64,000 nucleotides of DNA, from positions 96,001 to 160,000 of the IMG/VR virus record IMGVR_UViG_3300008952_000005; one strand, written 5' to 3'. The number at the start of each line of letters is the position of its first letter. Position 1 is the first letter of the stretch. The notes below the pieces were generated by a model that saw only the letters and a program-made list of their open reading frames with translations, was not told the DNA's origin and made no database searches. Made by a program: the position numbers and the translations under genes. The stretch comes from a virus. This document shows, piece by piece, positions 16,779 to 25,532 of the stretch.

Positions 16779-17774
16779 CTAACATTTCTTATAATAGTTT
16801 AATTTAGTTAACGCTTCTAATTTACTAAAGGTATTATTACTTATGATATCTCTTAACTCGCTTATTTTCATTCCATTCATTATCATTTCATTTACATCTT
16901 TAAGTTGCACGTCATTTGGCCAAACTACTACGTTATAATTTTTTTCAATTACAGCGTACATCCTTTTTATGATTTCTTTATTACGAGGTTCGTTGTCAAA
17001 TATATATGTAACTTGGTCACTTGACACTCTTAATGTTAAGTCAGCACCACCTGCTGCTAAACAATTATCTAAAAACAAACTATCAAGTGGACCTTCAACT
17101 ATGTAAATATGTTTTTGAAAATTTACACGTTCAAGTCCATATACTTTTTGTTTTGTTTCATCAAGTTTAATTGTAATGTATTTTGGTTGTTCTTTTCCAA
17201 ATGCTCTGCCTTGGAATGCAAACAACGTACCAGTTACGTCAAAGAAAGGAATTATTAATCTAGGGTGTTCATAACGTTCTTTAAAAGTTCCTGGTTTCAC
17301 TTTATTGGCAAAATTGTGAAATTTGTCAACAAAATAAATTATTTCATAATATTGTGGAGGAATCAATCTCTTCTTTACGTACTCCTTTACAGGATGTCCG
17401 TCTTTTAACGTACTTACTTTAATACAAGAATCTAATAAATTTGTTTCTTTAAATTTTGTTGGTTTAAAGTCAAATTTCGGCTGGGGCGTGGATGGTGCCG
17501 ATCCCTTGTATCTCTCTAATAAGTATTCTCCGTATTTTTTTGGATCCAAGAATTTAATGAAATTTGCTAAATTCTGACCCATACCACAATTGTGGCATTT
17601 GAAGAACATATCATTTTTTACTCTATAAAGATATGCCCTTGCTTTTGTTTTACTCTTCTGCGAGTCTCCACAATGTGGACACCTAAAATTGAAAAGATAA
17701 TCTGTCTTCTTTTTAAACTGGCTTAATGCTGAAGAAATAGCATTAATATACTTTAAATCTATATAACTTGACAT
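16779..17774 (-). CDS. gp61: T4-like DNA primase
   Basis: FRCPHCGDS zinc finger, CHNCG, RLIIPF, IVEGPLDSLF TOPRIM, DNEPRN, KDVNEM. Confidence 0.93.
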   Translation of the reverse strand: MSSYIDLKYINAISSALSQFKKKTDYLFNFRCPHCGDSQKSKTKARAYLYRVKNDMFFKCHNCGMGQNLANFIKFLDPKKYGEYLLERYKGSAPSTPQPKFDFKPTKFKETNLLDSCIKVSTLKDGHPVKEYVKKRLIPPQYYEIIYFVDKFHNFANKVKPGTFKERYEHPRLIIPFFDVTGTLFAFQGRAFGKEQPKYITIKLDETKQKVYGLERVNFQKHIYIVEGPLDSLFLDNCLAAGGADLTLRVSSDQVTYIFDNEPRNKEIIKRMYAVIEKNYNVVVWPNDVQLKDVNEMIMNGMKISELRDIISNNTFSKLEALTKLNYYKKC

Positions 17775-17787
17775 AACACTATCTCAT

Positions 17788-17816
17788 AATATACACCATA
17801 TCACAAAAAAAGTCAA
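17788..17816 (-). promoter_or_regulatory. sigma70-like promoter for primase-nrd operon
   Basis: TTGACT-N17-TATATT. Confidence 0.7.
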
Positions 17817-17840
17817 GTCTGTACACGAAAACCTGGTGAC

Positions 17841-17871
17841 AAAAAAATACCCAGGCTATTTTCCTCGGGTA
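17841..17871 (-). terminator. rho-independent terminator
   Basis: TACCC(G)AGG-AAAATAG-CCTGGGTA hairpin followed by T7. Confidence 0.6.
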
Positions 17872-17889
17872 AAAGGTAAGAGTTTTTTA

Positions 17890-18318
17890 CTAGCTCAGCA
17901 TATTCAAAATTTGCTCAAAATTACCTGCTACTATCCATCCTATTACTATAGCAGCACCTAATATAATCCATCTATATTTTTCTAATACACCAACTCTAAC
18001 ACCAATAGCATTATAAACTGTTTTAATCTCTAGTAATAAACGTCTTTCAGTTTGTTCTATTTCTCTAGTTAAATCTCTACGTATATTGTCTATTTCACCT
18101 GCACGTTCTTTTAACTTCTCAAATATAACTTCATCAATTTGTTCTTGTCTATTGATTTTTTCTGAATGGACTGCCAACATAGACTTAATAGATGTTGATA
18201 CATCTGTTAATTTGTCTATTGCTGTGTCTAAACGGTTGTGAATTCTATCAAATTCTTCAACGTCTTTTTTGAGTTTAGCAATATCTACTTTTGTTTTAAT
18301 TCCGTTATTTTCGTCCAT
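17890..18318 (-). CDS. coiled-coil protein with C-terminal membrane anchor
   Basis: heptad-rich body, WIILGAAIVIGWIV transmembrane segment. Confidence 0.7.
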   Translation of the reverse strand: MDENNGIKTKVDIAKLKKDVEEFDRIHNRLDTAIDKLTDVSTSIKSMLAVHSEKINRQEQIDEVIFEKLKERAGEIDNIRRDLTREIEQTERRLLLEIKTVYNAIGVRVGVLEKYRWIILGAAIVIGWIVAGNFEQILNMLS

Positions 18319-18410
18319 TAGAAATCTCTATCTATCCACTTGTAAATACTCCAATTCATATAGAGTAATAGACCCATTATTAACCAAAAATTAATTGTTC
18401 CCCAATCCAT
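18318..18410 (-). CDS. 30-aa membrane peptide (not in ORF track)
   Basis: MDWGTINFWLIMGLLLYMNWSIYKWIDRDF; TAATG overlaps at both ends. Confidence 0.5.
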   Translation of the reverse strand: MDWGTINFWLIMGLLLYMNWSIYKWIDRDF

Positions 18411-18541
18411 TATACGTTTCTCCATTGTGTTGGCAACCACCATTCGGTGTACCAATGTCTAAATTGTGCTGGGTGTCTACCTATGATAAAGATATACCAG
18501 AAACCCTTTATTAATTCTTTTATTGCTGTTAACCTACTCAT
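18410..18541 (-). CDS. 43-aa Trp-rich peptide (not in ORF track)
   Basis: MSRLTAIKELIKGFWYIFIIGRHPAQFRHWYTEWWLPTQWRNV; TAATG overlaps at both ends. Confidence 0.5.
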   Translation of the reverse strand: MSRLTAIKELIKGFWYIFIIGRHPAQFRHWYTEWWLPTQWRNV

Positions 18542-20688
18542 TAATCCGTTTGTATTATAGTAATATTATTTTGTGTAGAGGAACTCCCTACGTCCACGTG
18601 TTGAGCTTCTGAATCTTGTAAAATCTGTATATCTGCTTCTTTACTTGTTTCAGTTTTTACATACGCTCTATGGCTATCATTATATCTATTTATGATTGTG
18701 TAGTCACCAGACGTTGAAGCAGTTGCGTTAAAGTCGTTATCTAACGTTGATACTCTTCCTGTAGAAGTAGTACTTGTTGACACACCACCGCTTGTTGTAG
18801 TTAAGGTTTGAGTTACATCTCCAGTAGAATAATTTAATGTTTCACCACTAGCAGTTACTTGCGTTTCTGAACCACTATTGTCTACCCATTCAGTACCACA
18901 ACTAGAGTTGGCATTGTCCCAATAGTATCCATAATTTAAACACTCTTCTTTATCATAACTTGCTAATAATAATTCTAATTCTGCGTCTATATCATAGTCA
19001 TCTTCGTAACCATATTCATCTTCCCAATTGGTCTCATCTGATTCATTATTGTAATCGTAACCTGTATACCACCAATCATATACTGCGTCCCAATATGTAT
19101 TCCAATCTGACCATTCCCAATCTGTTATGTACGTATTCTTTAAATCTTTCATCTTCCAAGGTTTAGGTTGATTTTCACACATTTTATAATTAGGATAACT
19201 TCCACACCAACCATATAATTTACCCCATATCTTTTTAGATTCTTTAGTCCAACTATCATTGGTTACTTTTAAAGTCCAGTCATCTTTGTACCACGAATTT
19301 AACCAATCAACATAGTCTTGGTTACACCAGTAGTCATCATAGCCATTGTACTCACAATAATTTTGTATAGTTAATGTTGGTGGACCGCCTGCCGCTTTGT
19401 ATTCTGCATTGTTATAATAGTCATCATCTAAAGCAAAATCTTCCCAAGTATATCCTTCAACTACATCTGCTTCTGTTTCATCTTTTGTATCTTCAACTAC
19501 GTTAACCTCTTCTTCTTCAACTGCCCAAGAAGTTAAACCATAATCTTCTAATAATTCATTATACTCATCATAGTATGCGTCCCAATCAACTGCGTCCCAA
19601 TCTACATCATCCCAATTAATAGTATCCCAAGTACAATCTGAACAACCAATGGCGTCAAAGTATGCTTGATCCATTTCTGCATACATTTTCTTTGCGTCAT
19701 CCCAATCCATAGTTTGTTCACCTTCGGCATCCCAAACTGAAATCTGATTATCTTCATCTATATAACCCCAATCTTTTAAATCTTCTTCCCAGGAATCATA
19801 ATAAGATGTATCAACTTCTTCTACTTCAACTAATGCTGTTTCTTCTGCTGACTTTGTTTCAACTATTGCGTCTGTTTCACCAACAGATAAATCTGTAGCG
19901 ACAATTGTATTACTATCTTCTACTACACTTGCTTCTTCATTAATTAATGCCTCTTCCATTGCCTGTGCTTCAGATTCTTCTTTAGACATTTCAGTTTTCA
20001 TATCTACATCACCAAAATGTTTTTGAGATTCATCTTTTATTTCTTCTTCAAATTCATTTAACTCAATAATATCTGACTTATTAGTTTCTATTTTTGGAGG
20101 TGTTGGTGCTAAATCATTTGATAAAACGGTTACTGAATTGTAAGCGTTAGTTATTGTTTGAGAACCTGCGTCATTGGATACAGTTACTTGTCCTACTACA
20201 CCAGAACTATCTGGCAACAAAGTAATAGTTGCTTCACCTGTAGATGTTACCGTTCCTGAAAAAGCAGTACCTTGTACTGTAATTGTGGCATTACCAGCAT
20301 TGATATTAACTTCACCACCTAAATTAGATATAGAACCTGATTCATATGTAAATGTACCAACATTAACCGATATGTTCATTGCAATTTCTATTGGTACAAC
20401 AGAAGTATCAAAAGCAAATTCATCAATAGTTAATTCTGTATTTGGTCCCATTGTAAATTTAGTTTTATCAACATATGATAAAATCATACCACCATCTTCT
20501 CCAGTTTGGAGAAAGTCATTCATCTGCAACTCATAACCCATTGAGGTATTTTGAGTTGAACCATCTCTTTCGTTCCAAGTCGTACCCATTTGACCTATGA
20601 CTTCGCCAACTTTTGGACCTGTTATTTGTGAGAAAACACTAGTACAAAAAAGTACCAGAAAAGATATTAAAAATAAAAACTTCTTCAT
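18541..20688 (-). CDS. secreted FecR-domain protein with long acidic Trp/Tyr-rich region
   Basis: signal peptide; LQMNDFLQTGEDGGMILSYVDKTKFTMGPNTELTID and ATITVQGTAF FecR pattern; D/E/W/Y-rich middle; beta-strand C-terminus. Confidence 0.75.
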   Translation of the reverse strand: MKKFLFLISFLVLFCTSVFSQITGPKVGEVIGQMGTTWNERDGSTQNTSMGYELQMNDFLQTGEDGGMILSYVDKTKFTMGPNTELTIDEFAFDTSVVPIEIAMNISVNVGTFTYESGSISNLGGEVNINAGNATITVQGTAFSGTVTSTGEATITLLPDSSGVVGQVTVSNDAGSQTITNAYNSVTVLSNDLAPTPPKIETNKSDIIELNEFEEEIKDESQKHFGDVDMKTEMSKEESEAQAMEEALINEEASVVEDSNTIVATDLSVGETDAIVETKSAEETALVEVEEVDTSYYDSWEEDLKDWGYIDEDNQISVWDAEGEQTMDWDDAKKMYAEMDQAYFDAIGCSDCTWDTINWDDVDWDAVDWDAYYDEYNELLEDYGLTSWAVEEEEVNVVEDTKDETEADVVEGYTWEDFALDDDYYNNAEYKAAGGPPTLTIQNYCEYNGYDDYWCNQDYVDWLNSWYKDDWTLKVTNDSWTKESKKIWGKLYGWCGSYPNYKMCENQPKPWKMKDLKNTYITDWEWSDWNTYWDAVYDWWYTGYDYNNESDETNWEDEYGYEDDYDIDAELELLLASYDKEECLNYGYYWDNANSSCGTEWVDNSGSETQVTASGETLNYSTGDVTQTLTTTSGGVSTSTTSTGRVSTLDNDFNATASTSGDYTIINRYNDSHRAYVKTETSKEADIQILQDSEAQHVDVGSSSTQNNITIIQTD

Positions 20689-21056
20689 TTCTTAAACACC
20701 TCATCTAAATCATTATAAAACGATTCTTTATCTGCATACCCTATTATTCTTACCAATTCTTTTCTACCATTCCATACAATAAATGTTGGTGTTCCTCTAA
20801 TAGGTTTAATTCTTCCTTCAGCATATGCCTCTTTAAACCATTTAGGTTGATTATATAAATTAATAATAACTAAAGGTAAATCTTCATACTCATAGTCAAC
20901 TCCTACCTCTTGTAAAAAGTTTTGACATATACCACACATAGGATTGTGTGCCATTAATAATTCATTTGCTTTCGCTGATGATATGCCTAATACTAATAAT
21001 ACAGTAACACAAATTATTATTGCCCATTTTTCCCAAGGGTTGTGAAATAGTTTCAT
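20685..21056 (-). CDS. exported thioredoxin-fold protein (SoxS-like)
   Basis: signal/TM segment, LLM...CGIC CxxC, GTPTFIVW cis-Pro loop, RIIGY. Confidence 0.7.
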   Translation of the reverse strand: MKLFHNPWEKWAIIICVTVLLVLGISSAKANELLMAHNPMCGICQNFLQEVGVDYEYEDLPLVIINLYNQPKWFKEAYAEGRIKPIRGTPTFIVWNGRKELVRIIGYADKESFYNDLDEVFKK

Positions 21057-21184
21057 TTAAATTTCTTCTTCTTTTCTTTTCTTTTCCATTTTTCTGGATA
21101 GTAATTGTGGATTAGTGTACAGATTATGCCACCCGATAAACATATTGTACCAAATATTAAAAAGAAAGCAAAAAAACCTTTCAT
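21053..21184 (-). CDS. 43-aa membrane peptide with basic tail (not in ORF track)
   Basis: MKGFFAFFLIFGTICLSGGIICTLIHNYYPEKWKRKEKKKKFK; ATGA overlap with next gene. Confidence 0.5.
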   Translation of the reverse strand: MKGFFAFFLIFGTICLSGGIICTLIHNYYPEKWKRKEKKKKFK

Positions 21185-22276
21185 TTAACACCCATTAGAT
21201 ACTGTTGCTGTTACGTCTGCTGTTTGATTGTTTCTGTTATAAGAATAAGTACAAGTATATGATCCAGTTTGAGCAAAGTTTAATGTGTAATCGTAAATTG
21301 AATCACCTGTTATAGTAACCTTACCAGTATTACCACCACCTGTTTGAGCAAAATTTATTACTGTATCATCTGTATAAAGGAAAATTCTAGCAGTATTATT
21401 ACCGCCTGCCATATGTAATCTAATTGTATTACTATCGCCATTTATTATCGTTCTTAACCAATTGTTATCGCCAGATATTATAGCTGAGTCTCCATATGGG
21501 TCTGTATCAGCACTAGTATAACTAGAGTGAATATCTAAAAGATTTGAACTGCCTATAAAATCGTGTAGTTGATAGTTACCTGTACCATATGATGAAGTGT
21601 GTATTACATTTGAATTTCCTACTATGTAAATATCTGCACTTGCACCTTCACTACCTGAACTGTCTGCAAAATAACCGTGTGAAGAAGTTAGTGGACCAAT
21701 TGCTTTGTTAGAGTTTGTATTAAATCCTACTGAATCAGTTGTACTATACCACTCTACAGTATTACTATCACCGTTCATAAGAACATATAAGAAGTGATTA
21801 TCACCTCTATTCTGAACCCAAAATGTATTTGAGTCACCAACAATATCTAAATCAACATTGAAATTTGCTGAATCATCTGTCCAAGTATCATAGTCTACTA
21901 CATTTGAATTACCTGTAATAGTATGACCTAAATAATGACCTGTAGCATCCGTATCATCTATACCTAATCTTAATTTATTAGAATTACCAGTTGCTGTATA
22001 TAATAAAGTCATATCCTCACCATAAAAGTGTTGGTGACCAGAATAATCTGATACATTATTATTACCTATCTGATTTATAATGATTGTAATGTTCTCTCCA
22101 TTGACTTTAAATGGATATGTTGTTGAATAACCAACAGTATTACCTGTTCCATCTTGTTTTATAAAGATAGAACCATCGCTGTCTTGATTGTCTTGTTGAA
22201 TCCAAACTGAATTACCTGCTAGGCAATTACTCGTTAATGCTATTAGAGTCAACAGAATCATTATCATTTTTTTCAT
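21185..22276 (-). CDS. curlin-like (CsgA/CsgB-type) repeat protein
   Basis: signal peptide; more than ten x-I-x-Q/x-x-G-(N/D)-x-N repeats (IKQDGTGN, INQIGNNN, TITGNSN, IVGDSN, FAQTGGGN); directly downstream of csgG. Confidence 0.72.
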   Translation of the reverse strand: MKKMIMILLTLIALTSNCLAGNSVWIQQDNQDSDGSIFIKQDGTGNTVGYSTTYPFKVNGENITIIINQIGNNNVSDYSGHQHFYGEDMTLLYTATGNSNKLRLGIDDTDATGHYLGHTITGNSNVVDYDTWTDDSANFNVDLDIVGDSNTFWVQNRGDNHFLYVLMNGDSNTVEWYSTTDSVGFNTNSNKAIGPLTSSHGYFADSSGSEGASADIYIVGNSNVIHTSSYGTGNYQLHDFIGSSNLLDIHSSYTSADTDPYGDSAIISGDNNWLRTIINGDSNTIRLHMAGGNNTARIFLYTDDTVINFAQTGGGNTGKVTITGDSIYDYTLNFAQTGSYTCTYSYNRNNQTADVTATVSNGC

Positions 22277-23357
22277 CTACTTCCTCCCAGGCTTTCTCGT
22301 CTTCTATTTTTTCTTTTATCTTGTTTTTGTTTTCTTCTTTTTGAATTTCTTTTGTTTTAAGTGCTTCTAAATGTGCTAAATGTGCTTGATATTCGTCCCA
22401 AGTTTTAAACTTTGTTTTATTGGCTTTGTTATAATTTTTTACTTCAAGTTTTTGTGCTTTCTTTAATTCTTTTTTAGCTTTCTTTTCTTTCTTAAAATCT
22501 TCGTATGTTTTCTCTGGTTTTGCTTCGCCAATATCAACTGTTATTTCATCTGCTACTACTTTTAAATCTTCTGTTGGTACTATTTCCACTAGTTCAAATT
22601 CCCATAGTCCTTTTTCTGCACCTTCATTAATTAATTCTACTACACCTTTTTCTATTGCTTTTCTTACTGCATAAGTTACAGGTTCATTTCTTGCCACACC
22701 TGCTTCAATCTCTACTAACATTGTATCAGTATCTAAATATTTAAATATATCGCTGCCAGTTTCACCTGATATTATAGTCTTCTCAACAGTAAGTGATACC
22801 ACTACTTCACCTGTTTGTACATTAACAAGTCTTAATATAATTGTAACTACATCTTGTCGCCATTGTTTATGTGCTTGTATACCTAAAATTCTTGCACCAA
22901 AACCACCTGTCTTTACATCACTATCATAACCTACTATACCACCTGTTATATATGCACCTGCAAATAACAATGGTGGTAATGGTTCTGCACCTTCTCCATT
23001 AACTTGTTGTCTTGTAGAACGGATTAATTTTCTTTCTTGTAATAAACTTGGCAAACTTGCTCGTTCTACTATTCTAAACCATTTGCCATCACCTGCGTCT
23101 TGTAATGCTTTAATTAATAACTGATATGATCCTTGAGTTACTGCTGTACTCATAGACGCAAAGTTACCACCAGGTTTCTTTTGTCCTGTCATATCTAAAA
23201 AATCATATACTGCAATGATAATAGGATCGCCTTTAGGTAATTTCACTTCCGTTAATTCTTTATACAGAACAGGTTGAGACCTAACATCAAAGTCAGGTTT
23301 ACCAGCACAACTAACTAACAATAATGTTAGTAATAATATAACTATACTTCTAAACAT
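22227..23357 (-). CDS. csgG: curli secretion outer-membrane lipoprotein CsgG
   Basis: lipobox LVSC, IAVYDFLDMTGQKKP, STAVTQG, WFRIVER, LLQERKLIRSTR, GGIVGYD, LRLVNVQTGEVV; start moved to MFRS. Confidence 0.9.
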   Translation of the reverse strand: MFRSIVILLLTLLLVSCAGKPDFDVRSQPVLYKELTEVKLPKGDPIIIAVYDFLDMTGQKKPGGNFASMSTAVTQGSYQLLIKALQDAGDGKWFRIVERASLPSLLQERKLIRSTRQQVNGEGAEPLPPLLFAGAYITGGIVGYDSDVKTGGFGARILGIQAHKQWRQDVVTIILRLVNVQTGEVVVSLTVEKTIISGETGSDIFKYLDTDTMLVEIEAGVARNEPVTYAVRKAIEKGVVELINEGAEKGLWEFELVEIVPTEDLKVVADEITVDIGEAKPEKTYEDFKKEKKAKKELKKAQKLEVKNYNKANKTKFKTWDEYQAHLAHLEALKTKEIQKEENKNKIKEKIEDEKAWEEVDEKNDNDSVDSNSINE

Positions 23358-23821
23358 TATGAGTTGTCTTCTTTCGGCATTGTAAATGTTGTTACAGTTC
23401 CGTCGGTCTCCGTGACAGTTACGCTTACAGTATCGTTTGCTCCTGTAGTTGTTGTTGCCCAAGTTACTACTTCACCACCAACTGGTGATGTAAATGTACC
23501 AGAGTCTTGTTGTAGACCATCTGTACCAAAAACATTATCTGTAAGTTGTTTAGCAAGTGCTGTATAAAATCTTGATTCAACATTTGCTTTAAATTTTGCT
23601 ATTGCTGTTGCCTTGGCGTCTGCTATTACTTTATCTGCCGCCGCTTTATTCGCTGCCTTTATAGCATCCTTCCTAGTCTTCTCAATATTCTCTATCGTTA
23701 GATAATGTGAAGATTTACCTTGACCTGAAAATGATGGACTATGAAATTTAAAACTTAATTCACTTGCATAGGCACTAGGAACTAACAATAATACTGTTAA
23801 AATAATGGTTATTAATCGCAT
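23357..23821 (-). CDS. csgF: curli assembly protein CsgF-like
   Basis: signal peptide then SELSFKFHSPSFSG (cf. CsgF TMTFQFRNPNFGG); C-terminal VTVTETDGTVTTF; coupled to csgG. Confidence 0.8.
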   Translation of the reverse strand: MRLITIILTVLLLVPSAYASELSFKFHSPSFSGQGKSSHYLTIENIEKTRKDAIKAANKAAADKVIADAKATAIAKFKANVESRFYTALAKQLTDNVFGTDGLQQDSGTFTSPVGGEVVTWATTTTGANDTVSVTVTETDGTVTTFTMPKEDNS

Positions 23822-23844
23822 TTTCCTTCTCTCTTTGATGTATA

Positions 23845-23852
23845 TATTTATA
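23845..23852 (-). promoter_or_regulatory. T4-type late promoter for curli operon
   Basis: TATAAATA 24 nt upstream of the csgF start. Confidence 0.7.
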
Positions 23853-23862
23853 AGATATCTGT

Positions 23863-23870
23863 ACTAAATA
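23863..23870 (+). promoter_or_regulatory. possible late-promoter variant for the cyclase
   Basis: ACTAAATA 6 nt upstream of ATG 23877. Confidence 0.4.
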
Positions 23871-23876
23871 GTACGT

Positions 23877-25532
23877 ATGATTAAAATATTGACGAAAACG
23901 TGGGCAGTATATTTGACGTTGATTATATTACTTGGAATATATATATCAAATCCTATCTTGCTACAAACAGCAAAACTAAACACCTTTGATTTTTACCAAA
24001 CCTTTGGTAAGAATTATGAATCCAAAAGTTTAGTACTAGTAGACATATCAGACAAAGCATTAAAAAAGAATGGGCAATGGCCGTGGAAAAGAGATTTACT
24101 TGGTCGTGTCATAATCAATGCGTATAAAAATGGTGCCGCTCTTGTAGTTTTACAAGTAGTCTTCCCACATAAAGATAGATTAGGTGGTGATGAAATGTTT
24201 TTGAAAATGATACAAAAATATCCAGTCATACTTACTGAAACGGATGATGTAAAAAATCTACAAAGTATCTCACGTAAAGCATTAGCAATAGGTAACGTAA
24301 GTGTGCCAGTTGATATAGATGGCACTATAAGAAAACTACCTCTTGATAAATCCATACCTGATGTTATCTTAAAAGTTATCAATGCAAAAACTTTAGCAGA
24401 AGATACTATCTGGATTGATTTCAGACATCATATTCCTAGAATAGATTTTACTGATAAAGATTGGTCGTCTGTAAAAGGTAAAATAGTTTTCATAGGTACA
24501 ACATTCCAAGGTTCAACATTTGTTACTACTCCTAATGGATTAAAAAACACACACGAAATTATGGCAATCAGTACAGAAACTTTATTGTCAGGTAATTTTA
24601 TTAGTAGACCTTATTGGTTACCATATAGTGAATTTGCTTTTATACTATTAGGTGCTCTATTTTTTCTCATAGTTATACCTAGATGTGGTGTAATGTGGTC
24701 TGCGATATGGTTTGGTGGATACTTATTTGATTTAACACTTGCAAGTTCTTATCTATGGACGCAACACTTAATCATAACTGATTGGTTCAGTCCACTTGTA
24801 ATAGGGTCTGTAATATGGGGTCAGTTAACATACAATAACTATTCAAAAGAAAATAAATTAAGACTACAAATTAAGAAACAATTTGAACACTATCTATCTC
24901 CAGATATGGTTAAAAAACTACAAAAGAATCCATCACTATTAAAACTAGGTGGTGAAAGAAAAAAAATGACGTTTTTGTTTTCAGACATACGTGGCTTTAC
25001 TCCTATATCGGAATCTATGAAAGGTAATCCAGAAAAACTTACCAAGTATGTTAATAAGTTCTTGACTGTAATGACTGATATAATATTAAAAAATGGTGGA
25101 ACTATTGATAAGTATATGGGTGATTGTATAATGGCATTTTGGAACGCACCCCTAGACAATCCAAATCATCAAAGATTAGCAGTATTATCTGCATCCCAAA
25201 TGAAAAAAACAGTTGAAGAAATGAATAAGAGTAGAGAGTTTGACCCACCTTTAAAGATTGGTATAGGTATCAATACTGGTGAGTGTCTTGTAGGTAATAT
25301 GGGGTCTGAACAACGTTTTGATTATTCTGTTATTGGTGACGCTGTTAATTTGGCAAGTAGATTGGAAGGTAAAAGTAAAGATTTTGATACTACAATAGTA
25401 ATATCTCAACATACTGCTGAAGGTATTGACTTTGTTCCATTGGCAAGACCAGATGGATTTAAATTCTATAAACTAGGTATCTCTACTGTAAAAGGTAAAA
25501 AAGAAAAGGTTAATTGTTTTTCTATTAAATAA
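23877..25532 (+). CDS. CHASE2-domain class III adenylate cyclase
   Basis: N-terminal TM, CHASE2-like LVDISDKAL..GQWPWKR and DIDGTIR, three further TMs, FSDIRGFT, IDKYMGDCIMAFWNAP, GNMGSEQRFDYSVIGDAVNLASRLE. Confidence 0.92.
   Translation: MIKILTKTWAVYLTLIILLGIYISNPILLQTAKLNTFDFYQTFGKNYESKSLVLVDISDKALKKNGQWPWKRDLLGRVIINAYKNGAALVVLQVVFPHKDRLGGDEMFLKMIQKYPVILTETDDVKNLQSISRKALAIGNVSVPVDIDGTIRKLPLDKSIPDVILKVINAKTLAEDTIWIDFRHHIPRIDFTDKDWSSVKGKIVFIGTTFQGSTFVTTPNGLKNTHEIMAISTETLLSGNFISRPYWLPYSEFAFILLGALFFLIVIPRCGVMWSAIWFGGYLFDLTLASSYLWTQHLIITDWFSPLVIGSVIWGQLTYNNYSKENKLRLQIKKQFEHYLSPDMVKKLQKNPSLLKLGGERKKMTFLFSDIRGFTPISESMKGNPEKLTKYVNKFLTVMTDIILKNGGTIDKYMGDCIMAFWNAPLDNPNHQRLAVLSASQMKKTVEEMNKSREFDPPLKIGIGINTGECLVGNMGSEQRFDYSVIGDAVNLASRLEGKSKDFDTTIVISQHTAEGIDFVPLARPDGFKFYKLGISTVKGKKEKVNCFSIK

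Follow-up and report, generated by a model that had tools for sequence, protein, structure and literature searches.

A curli-type secretion module linked to a FecR-domain protein and a CHASE2 cyclase in an uncultured pelagimyophage-like virus

Phages of SAR11 and OM43 bacteria are among the most numerous viruses of the sea. The genes csgF and csgG of type VIII secretion systems (T8SS, 'curli') have been described in pelagimyophages, within a hypervariable region and with a function called unclear (Zaragoza-Solas 2020, PMC7029224). Buchholz 2022 proposed a pore for lysis timing, modelled modified CsgF/CsgG for the phage Melnitz and reported that Melnitz-infected cells showed no clumping (PMC9004378). 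Neither of these two studies mentions a cyclase or FecR. Wittmers et al. 2022 (mSystems, PMC9599517) described CsgF, CsgG, CsgA/B, FecR, a histidine kinase (upstream of csgF) and an adenylate cyclase (AC) in podoviral pelagiphages, found CsgA/B, FecR and AC also in myoviruses (with trees) and detected transcripts in Pacific metatranscriptomes. They termed FecR and AC 'putatively regulatory', estimated pelagiphage curli genes at ~0.1% of assembled viral proteins and concluded that selection acts on the whole gene set. Among bacteria, the Burkholderia BiofilmReg operon combines FecR with a CHASE2 kinase (PMC5192318), and in Sinorhizobium meliloti, the sensing of an external protein by the CHASE2 cyclases CyaD1/CyaD2/CyaK depends on NsrA, a protein of the outer membrane (PMC13001267, PMC7529298). 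Here, we study a curli-type gene block in a 64,000-nucleotide (nt) stretch of viral DNA (the window in the following), i.e., bases 96001-160000 of the complete 177,460-bp IMG/VR virus record IMGVR_UViG_3300008952_000005 with terminal repeats. Since the cluster including FecR and AC has been published (PMC9599517), the module as such is already known. What is newly added is the strictness of the linkage, a late promoter, a CsgA-like fold, a plug-like FecR domain and the bacterial FecR-CHASE2 neighbourhoods.

The block covers window 18541-25532 and holds seven genes (Table 1), six on the minus strand (csgF, csgG, the gene of a curlin-like protein of 363 amino acids (aa), two small genes and the gene of a 715-aa FecR-domain protein) and a CHASE2 cyclase on the plus strand. 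From csgF onward, the minus-strand junctions are TAATG, a 50-nt overlap of csgG and the curlin gene, TAAATG, ATGA and ATGA, and the six genes are therefore translationally coupled. The intergenic gap between csgF and the divergent cyclase is 55 nt. A first-pass annotation, made from the letters of the window, had named csgF, csgG and a CHASE2 class III cyclase, had called the minus-strand genes translationally coupled and had noted that csgF/csgG were already reported from SAR11 myoviruses. The three identities are borne out by Pfam matches, the coupling by the start/stop junctions and the 50-nt overlap, and the remark on SAR11 myoviruses is correct (PMC7029224). Our reading, for and against which we see about equal weight, is that the block is a pelagimyophage T8SS accessory module with a welded FecR-CHASE2 sensory unit that works as proposed below.

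The reading builds in part on gene linkage. We collected 80 IMG/VR loci via the window CsgG and a second 80 via the CsgG of phage HTVC008M. Across the loci of the window clade, the order csgF-csgG-curlin-FecR is constant and the cyclase adjoins the module in 62/62 readable loci (the 17 loci without a cyclase are all interrupted by a contig end and were excluded from the 62). The cyclase takes two alternative positions. It is upstream and divergent in 45 loci (gap of 54-99 nt); in the other 17, it lies downstream on the same strand, mostly at a distance of 21 nt, as the final gene of the same operon. For HTVC008M-type loci with enough downstream sequence, the cyclase is found in 19/20. On the cyclase tree this position changes at least twice, on the CsgG tree 7 times, with at least 4 of the latter changes forced by supported branches. 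Because the position changes are discordant between the two trees, the blocks must recombine, such that csgG alleles are shuffled. The cyclase adjacency is kept despite both relocation and recombination. In 50,697 deposited phage records, full-length cyclase relatives are confined to HTVC008M and Melnitz, which are also the pelagi-/methylophages with csgG. For Mosig, the nearest cultured relative, neither csgG nor the cyclase nor the FecR N-terminal domain gave a match. The co-occurrence of cyclase and FecR with csgFG, on which the first-pass annotation had staked its proposal, extends over both sets of loci as well as HTVC008M and Melnitz. The linkage of the cyclase with the module is real and selected.

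Some loci depart from the common layout. Two of them carry a second, divergent CHASE2-cyclase-like gene (L072:14367-16289, L073:14509-15567; 38-52% identity) that is convergent with the end of the FecR gene, such that the module is flanked by two cyclases. In one HTVC008M-type myovirus locus (L188:10583-16455), no cyclase comes after the FecR gene; instead, it precedes genes for proteins of 507 aa and 1446 aa, neither of which has a Pfam match. A histidine kinase upstream of csgF was found in none of the 160 loci. In MW574966, a deposited podovirus, no curli genes were found in bases 1-45,000 of 59,769.

Both pore proteins are well covered by family models. CsgF carries a signal peptide and matches Pfam CsgF with an E value of 5.9e-11 (43.1 bits vs. 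a cut-off of 25.8). Its mature N-terminus SELSFKFHSPSFSG matches the constriction peptide TMTFQFRNPNFGG of E. coli CsgF when aligned to PDB 6l7a, i.e., the peptide that lines the CsgG barrel in E. coli. From this alignment, the csgF product is predicted to be an extracellular or pore-lining CsgF. CsgG matches its Pfam family with 8.7e-50 (169.4 bits vs. a cut-off of 20.8) and aligns to E. coli CsgG with 9e-48 over its residues 8-255 (248 residues). It has a lipobox (LLVSC-AG, residues 13-19), the C17 of which is invariant in 14 phage sequences, and is predicted to be an outer-membrane lipoprotein pore. The constriction loop reads KPGGNFASMSTAV compared to KPYPASNFSTAV in E. coli; that is, GGNFASM is found where E. 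coli CsgG reads YPASNF, and the N-F pair is out of register with E. coli Y51/N55/F56. A C-terminal tail of ~120 aa, rich in Lys and Glu, extends the CsgG core of ~255 aa (window 22227-22600). Since the length of this tail differs widely, total CsgG lengths range from 305 to 474 aa among related phages.

The 363-aa protein starts with a signal peptide and consists of ~12 strand-turn-strand repeats with the motif G-[DN]-[SN]-N. When 22 orthologues are aligned, the G and N of the motif are invariant with a period of 22-25 residues, and so is a C-terminal Cys pair (C342, C363). The AlphaFold2 model (pLDDT, i.e., mean predicted local distance difference test, of 71.5) stacks the strand-turn-strand units into a beta-solenoid, the fold that the first-pass annotation had demanded of a curlin. 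Its best structural match among 48,161 representative chains is Pontibacter CsgA (8c50_A; Z 23.2, root-mean-square deviation (rmsd) 9.0, 267 aligned, 22% identity), and the next matches are unrelated beta-helices with Z of at most 17.3. CsgA surfaced in this wider search; Foldseek with the same model gave weak rows of generic beta-helices. On the sequence level, Pfam Curlin_rpt (PF07012) has no match in the protein at E<=0.1, nor phage-wide at E<=1, and the NCBIfam CsgA match is weak (0.0029, 17.5 bits) and far under its cut-off. The homologues from HTVC008M and Melnitz pass Curlin_rpt. The curlin assignment thus combines the fold with weak or transitive sequence evidence, and the Pfam repeat definition leaves the protein outside. 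Given the model, the protein probably works like curlin and shares ancestry with it.

The 715-aa protein reaches 20.5 bits on Pfam FecR (cut-off 24; residues ~60-156). Its orthologues (48-88% identical) match Pfam FecR in 13/19 cases (best 3.4e-8), and the FecR proteins of HTVC008M and Melnitz score 35.8 and 40.5 bits. A signal peptide is followed by the FecR-like N-terminal domain (~24-200) and an acidic disordered linker (~182-290). A conserved helical region rich in Trp, Asp and Cys (~290-590) comes next, and the beta-rich C-terminus closes with ITIIQTD. The AlphaFold2 model shows a confident beta domain at 24-90, and residues 24-97 superpose on PDB 5ix9 (Z 12.5, rmsd 1.8 A, 74/76 residues; next match Z 4.6). 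This entry is RIN. In the RTX adhesin MpIBP, RIN forms the periplasmic N-terminal domain and has been described as a plug too big for the outer-membrane pore, such that the adhesin is retained on the cell (PMC5550230). There is no RTX or cadherin Pfam match in the 715-aa protein; it works at most like an RTX adhesin (LapA/MpIBP type) and is not a member of that class. For the remainder, an Atlas search with residues 290-715 returned no result and the family profile has no PDB match by sequence. An hhalign comparison of the family with the curlin family aligned the signal peptides only, and the C-terminus is therefore not detectably curlin-like. The protein has only about its first 200 residues in common with the ~370-aa HTVC008M-type FecR proteins.

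For the cyclase, Pfam CHASE2 matches with 5.4e-28 (98.7 bits vs. a cut-off of 26.3, residues 15-262) and Guanylate_cyc with 1.9e-22. The protein runs from a first transmembrane (TM) helix through the periplasmic CHASE2 domain (~27-246), three further TM helices and a transducer helix to the class III catalytic domain, and the hydrophobic segments of the membrane block are visible in the alignment. The residues that define class III, i.e., two metal Asp, the substrate Lys plus Thr/Ser/Asp, and the transition-state Asn and Arg, are all six intact, with D370, K412, D416, S484, N491 and R495 invariant in 20 cyclase sequences. Best PDB matches of the catalytic domain are those of P. aeruginosa CyaB and of Cya2; the substrate Lys aligns with a Glu of the Cya2 catalytic domain in 2w01. 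From the Lys/Ser pair we infer ATP as the likely substrate.

The timing of the block can be estimated from its promoter. The exact T4-type late motif TATAAATA precedes csgF in 50/59 distinct upstream regions, mostly at -29 to -32 of the ATG, and is present whichever position the cyclase takes. By our own estimate, ~0.02 occurrences are expected by chance per 120-nt region at this base composition. For the late-promoter-like ACTAAATA ahead of the divergent cyclase, the reverse complement TATTTAG is found again in some of the related loci. A scan for sigma-70 promoters performed no better than on shuffles. The motif suggests that the curli block is transcribed late in infection.

To place the FecR-cyclase pair outside phages, the phage-cyclase profile was searched against 1.84 billion representatives, among which the window clade collapses to one cluster. 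The next matches have 595-690 aa (the size of the HTVC008M/Melnitz cyclases), followed by proteins of 720-830 aa that are presumably bacterial. Relatives of one of the latter proteins (P0141) were found at E<=1e-70 in 113/401 sampled Pseudomonadota genomes, and 20 of these bacterial CHASE2 loci (L099-L118) were taken with 8-kb flanks. A FecR N-domain profile built from phages only identifies the open reading frame (ORF) directly beside the cyclase in 14/20 of them and in 15/20 after one iteration (E values of 1e-13 to 1e-5). Pfam FecR was confirmed in 5/5 partners tested. As the alignment covers phage FecR residues ~27-150, the plug-like fold lies inside the segment common to the bacterial FecR domains.

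The bacterial pairs differ in their company. In four loci (L099, L100, L102, L105), the FecR domain is at residues ~125-250 of 1450-1640-aa proteins. Two of these large proteins were scanned with Pfam and show cadherin-like and Big_9 repeats, one also a weak RTX-type C-terminal match. At L099:7998-17983, a tight block on one strand comprises the ~1500-aa FecR protein, an ABC exporter, HlyD and the CHASE2 cyclase. The arrangement looks like that of an RTX adhesin and a cyclase that reads the adhesin's periplasmic retention domain. We know of no description of such a FecR-RTX-CHASE2 block with type I secretion system (T1SS) genes. HlyD and ABC genes are also found beside the cyclase in L103 and L104. 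In two Pseudomonadota genomes, a ShlB/POTRA_2 (TpsB-type) pore, a CHASE2 cyclase and a short FecR protein stand together (L117:3970-10902, L118:6658-12087). In about 9/15 pairs, the FecR protein is short and stands alone, and no secretion partner is obvious within the 8-kb flanks. Judged from these profile matches, FecR-CHASE2 is a conserved bacterial pair that is found beside predicted outer-membrane secretion systems. A scan of the GTDB species representatives with the CsgG alignment gave a single locus (L085, from a Rickettsiales metagenome-assembled genome), which is an ordinary curlin-curlin-csgF-csgG operon without FecR or cyclase. Since bacterial FecR-CHASE2 pairs are found beside other pores and the L085 csg operon is an ordinary one, the phage module resembles two joined units. 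It looks like a curli unit plus a FecR-CHASE2 unit of bacterial origin for which the type of pore was exchanged.

The proposed working is as follows. Late in infection, a phage-made CsgG lipoprotein pore, capped by CsgF, would be placed in the outer membrane of the host and would export the CsgA-like beta-solenoid subunit. The FecR/plug-like N-terminal domain of the 715-aa protein would stay periplasmic, with the remainder of the protein threaded through, or docked onto, the CsgG channel. The CHASE2 domain would read the state of the FecR domain, and the cytoplasmic domain would convert it to cyclic AMP (cAMP), with aggregation, superinfection or lysis timing as candidate processes under its control. 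That is, we infer fibre export, the FecR-CHASE2 contact, the threading through CsgG and the role of cAMP. The first-pass annotation had proposed a trans-envelope sensing circuit in this sense. Its linkage part stands, and the circuit itself is plausible by analogy to the bacterial FecR-CHASE2 pairs beside secretion pores and to the NsrA-dependent CHASE2 cyclases. By the same analogies, a trans-envelope sensor is a plausible, and in our view the best, reading of the linkage.

Several observations weigh against such a sensor. Cells infected by Melnitz do not clump (PMC9004378). The conserved cysteines and the folded helical region of the 715-aa protein would hinder its passage through a channel of ~1 nm, and, since only the ~200 N-terminal residues are common with HTVC008M-type FecR proteins, the part supposed to be threaded is not conserved. 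The phage genome encodes no cNMP-binding or GAF_2 protein as a receiver of the cyclic nucleotide. Myovirus locus L188 has csgG, curlin and FecR, with no cyclase within 6 kb. Finally, CsgG is in none of the 20 bacterial FecR-CHASE2 loci, and the pairing of FecR-CHASE2 with a curli pore is therefore phage-specific.

Classical FecR is a periplasmic signal relay. FecR and the cyclase may accordingly be general regulators, as suggested in PMC9599517. They would sense an external or periplasmic cue that does not involve the pore (iron, nutrients, cell density), such that cAMP sets curli gene expression or host metabolism. We consider this unlikely. It agrees with the term 'putatively regulatory' used in PMC9599517 and with the stand-alone FecR proteins of the ~9/15 bacterial pairs without evident secretion partner. 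However, the phage encodes neither a transcription factor nor a cNMP receptor for such an output, and the operon appears to be timed already by its late promoter. Furthermore, the FecR gene is located inside a translationally coupled secretion operon, and the N-terminal domain of its product resembles a pore plug.

A repurposing of CsgG-CsgF as a lysis-timing pore (pinholin-/secretin-like, Buchholz et al. 2022) is improbable in our view. Here, the cyclase and FecR would form a periplasmic sensor of the lysis-inhibition type, and the curlin-like proteins would be accessory and not form fibres. The late promoter, the lack of clumping in Melnitz infections together with the modified CsgF/CsgG modelled there, and a CsgG constriction loop unlike that of E. 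coli (GGNFASM vs. YPASNF) are all in accordance with it. Nevertheless, every locus retains a conserved CsgA-like solenoid, the repeat glycines and asparagines of which are invariant, an outer-membrane pore is not able to depolarise the inner membrane, and no link to a holin was found.

Still less credit is due to an ungated import channel for cofactors or iron complexes, the substrate arrival at which would be signalled by FecR. The idea was raised in both PMC7029224 and PMC9599517 and fits the absence of the CsgE gate, but it leaves CsgF, the curlin subunit and the adhesin-like relatives of the FecR domain unexplained. That the cyclase is a functionally unrelated neighbour in a hypervariable island is highly improbable: the region has indeed been described as hypervariable and one locus is without cyclase, but the adjacency in 62/62 and 19/20 loci persists through relocation and recombination, and FecR is paired with the cyclase in bacteria as well.

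Beyond the preferred reading of a curli module with a FecR-CHASE2 sensory unit, we raise a more general idea with rather more doubt than belief. FecR-domain proteins with CHASE2 may be a general, unrecognised 'pore-occupancy' sensor of Gram-negative envelopes that marine phages moved onto the curli pore. If so, a protein threaded through a TolC-type T1SS, a TpsB or a phage CsgG channel would carry the FecR domain as its periplasmic plug, and CHASE2 would sense whether this plug is seated. An infected SAR11/OM43 cell would report the fate of a phage-made surface fibre or tether as cAMP, where the reported events could be contact with other cells, virions or the debris of lysed neighbours. The function of pelagiphage curli has been called a mystery in three papers, and the present additions provide a concrete and testable model. 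Strict linkage, late timing, a CsgA-like fold and the bacterial FecR-CHASE2 unit would take the place of a loose remark on nearby regulatory genes. The model also points to an uncharacterised class of bacterial operons that combine an RTX-adhesin-like protein with FecR N-terminus, T1SS genes and a CHASE2 cyclase.

The positions of all features of the block are collected in Table 1.

Table 1. Genes and promoter motifs of the block in window coordinates with the evidence for each assignment.
Feature	Position	Strand	Evidence
csgF	23357..23821	-	Pfam CsgF; alignment to PDB 6l7a CsgF residues 5-41
csgG	22227..23357	-	Pfam CsgG; E. coli CsgG match over residues 8-255
Probable CsgA-like curlin subunit, 363 aa	21185..22276	-	fold match; weak/transitive sequence matches
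43-aa single-pass membrane peptide	21053..21184	-	translation
Thioredoxin-like CGIC protein, 123 aa, membrane-anchored or periplasmic	20685..21056	-	Pfam Thioredoxin_2 at cut-off
Secreted FecR-domain protein, 715 aa	18541..20688	-	sub-threshold FecR; orthologues; AlphaFold2 model
CHASE2 receptor adenylate cyclase, 551 aa	23877..25532	+	Pfam CHASE2 and Guanylate_cyc
T4-type late promoter TATAAATA	23845..23852	-	sequence; 31 nt before csgF ATG
Late-promoter-like ACTAAATA, function uncertain	23863..23870	+	sequence; 7 nt before cyclase ATG

The two small genes between the curlin and the FecR gene are lineage-specific inserts. The 43-aa ORF encodes one hydrophobic helix followed by a Lys-rich tail. 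Besides L025, L026 and L028, which have it, only L009, L010 and L015 show parts of it. The thioredoxin-like protein has a CGIC motif and a Thioredoxin_2 match (6e-6) whose 27.0 bits equal the cut-off. It has no NCBIfam match that would support the 'SoxS-like' label given at first pass, nor any other NCBIfam match. Its complete gene is present only in L025, L026 and L028; L006, L007, L008 and L049 keep its first 30 codons alone, with L008 cut at a contig end. At L006:7477-9660, L007:4529-6712 and L049:7173-9335, a deletion fused these 30 codons, i.e., a membrane anchor, to the FecR gene. The fusion replaces the FecR signal peptide, and the variant FecR protein would be membrane-anchored.

The coupled string extends past the FecR gene with small ORFs of 43 aa and 45 aa (window 18318-18541, TAATG junction). 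At window 16779-18318, a primase-like gene is found as two ORFs (142 aa and 331 aa, both PHROG 451) that are ~115 nt apart and may represent either a split/frameshifted gp61 or two separate genes. T4-type replication genes (gp43 polymerase, gp41 helicase, primase, NrdA) flank the block. The window DNA polymerase shares 73.7% identity with its counterpart in Pelagibacter phage Mosig and ~50% with cyanomyovirus polymerases. Together, they identify the virus as an uncultured pelagimyophage-like T4 relative. Its G+C content is 29-36%.

Compared to known systems, the block is closest to the pelagiphage T8SS cluster (PMC9599517; GenBank KC465899, MZ577097), with which it shares the set of csgF, csgG, curlin-repeat, FecR and cyclase genes as well as the type of carrier, i.e., a marine T4-like phage of streamlined heterotrophs. 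In the window lineage, however, the cyclase is upstream and divergent and does not close the operon, and a single curlin gene is present where the published cluster has two. At 715 aa, the FecR protein is longer than those of HTVC008M and Melnitz (~370 aa), and there are two inserts, i.e., the thioredoxin-like gene and the 43-aa membrane peptide. None of PMC9599517, PMC7029224 and PMC9004378 mentions CHASE2, the plug-like fold, the late promoter or the neighbourhoods of FecR-CHASE2 in bacteria. With bacterial curli systems, the block has the CsgG core (248 residues), the CsgF N-terminal peptide and a CsgA-like beta-solenoid in common. Unlike them, the window is without CsgE, CsgC and CsgD, its subunit is without Curlin_rpt match and its CsgG has a long charged tail. 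The coupling of FecR and cyclase to curli is a phage feature, found in none of the bacterial csg or CHASE2 loci examined.

The Burkholderia BiofilmReg operon and the 20 bacterial loci resemble the phage block in that a FecR-domain periplasmic protein is encoded beside a CHASE2 membrane sensor. Their partners are T1SS/RTX-adhesin-like, TpsB or absent, the output may be a kinase, and none is linked to CsgG. The NsrA pathway is similar in its logic, as an outer-membrane beta-barrel relays an external signal to inner-membrane CHASE2 cyclases and thereby to cAMP. It differs in that NsrA is not CsgG and in that cAMP is read in Sinorhizobium by the CRP-like Clr, a receiver of which kind is not encoded by the phage. 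Unlike RTX adhesins, the 715-aa phage protein starts with a Sec signal peptide and is without RTX repeats and T1SS signal; its pore would be CsgG instead of TolC. What it shares with the RIN of MpIBP is the fold of residues 24-97 and the order of plug, flexible linker and distal domains.

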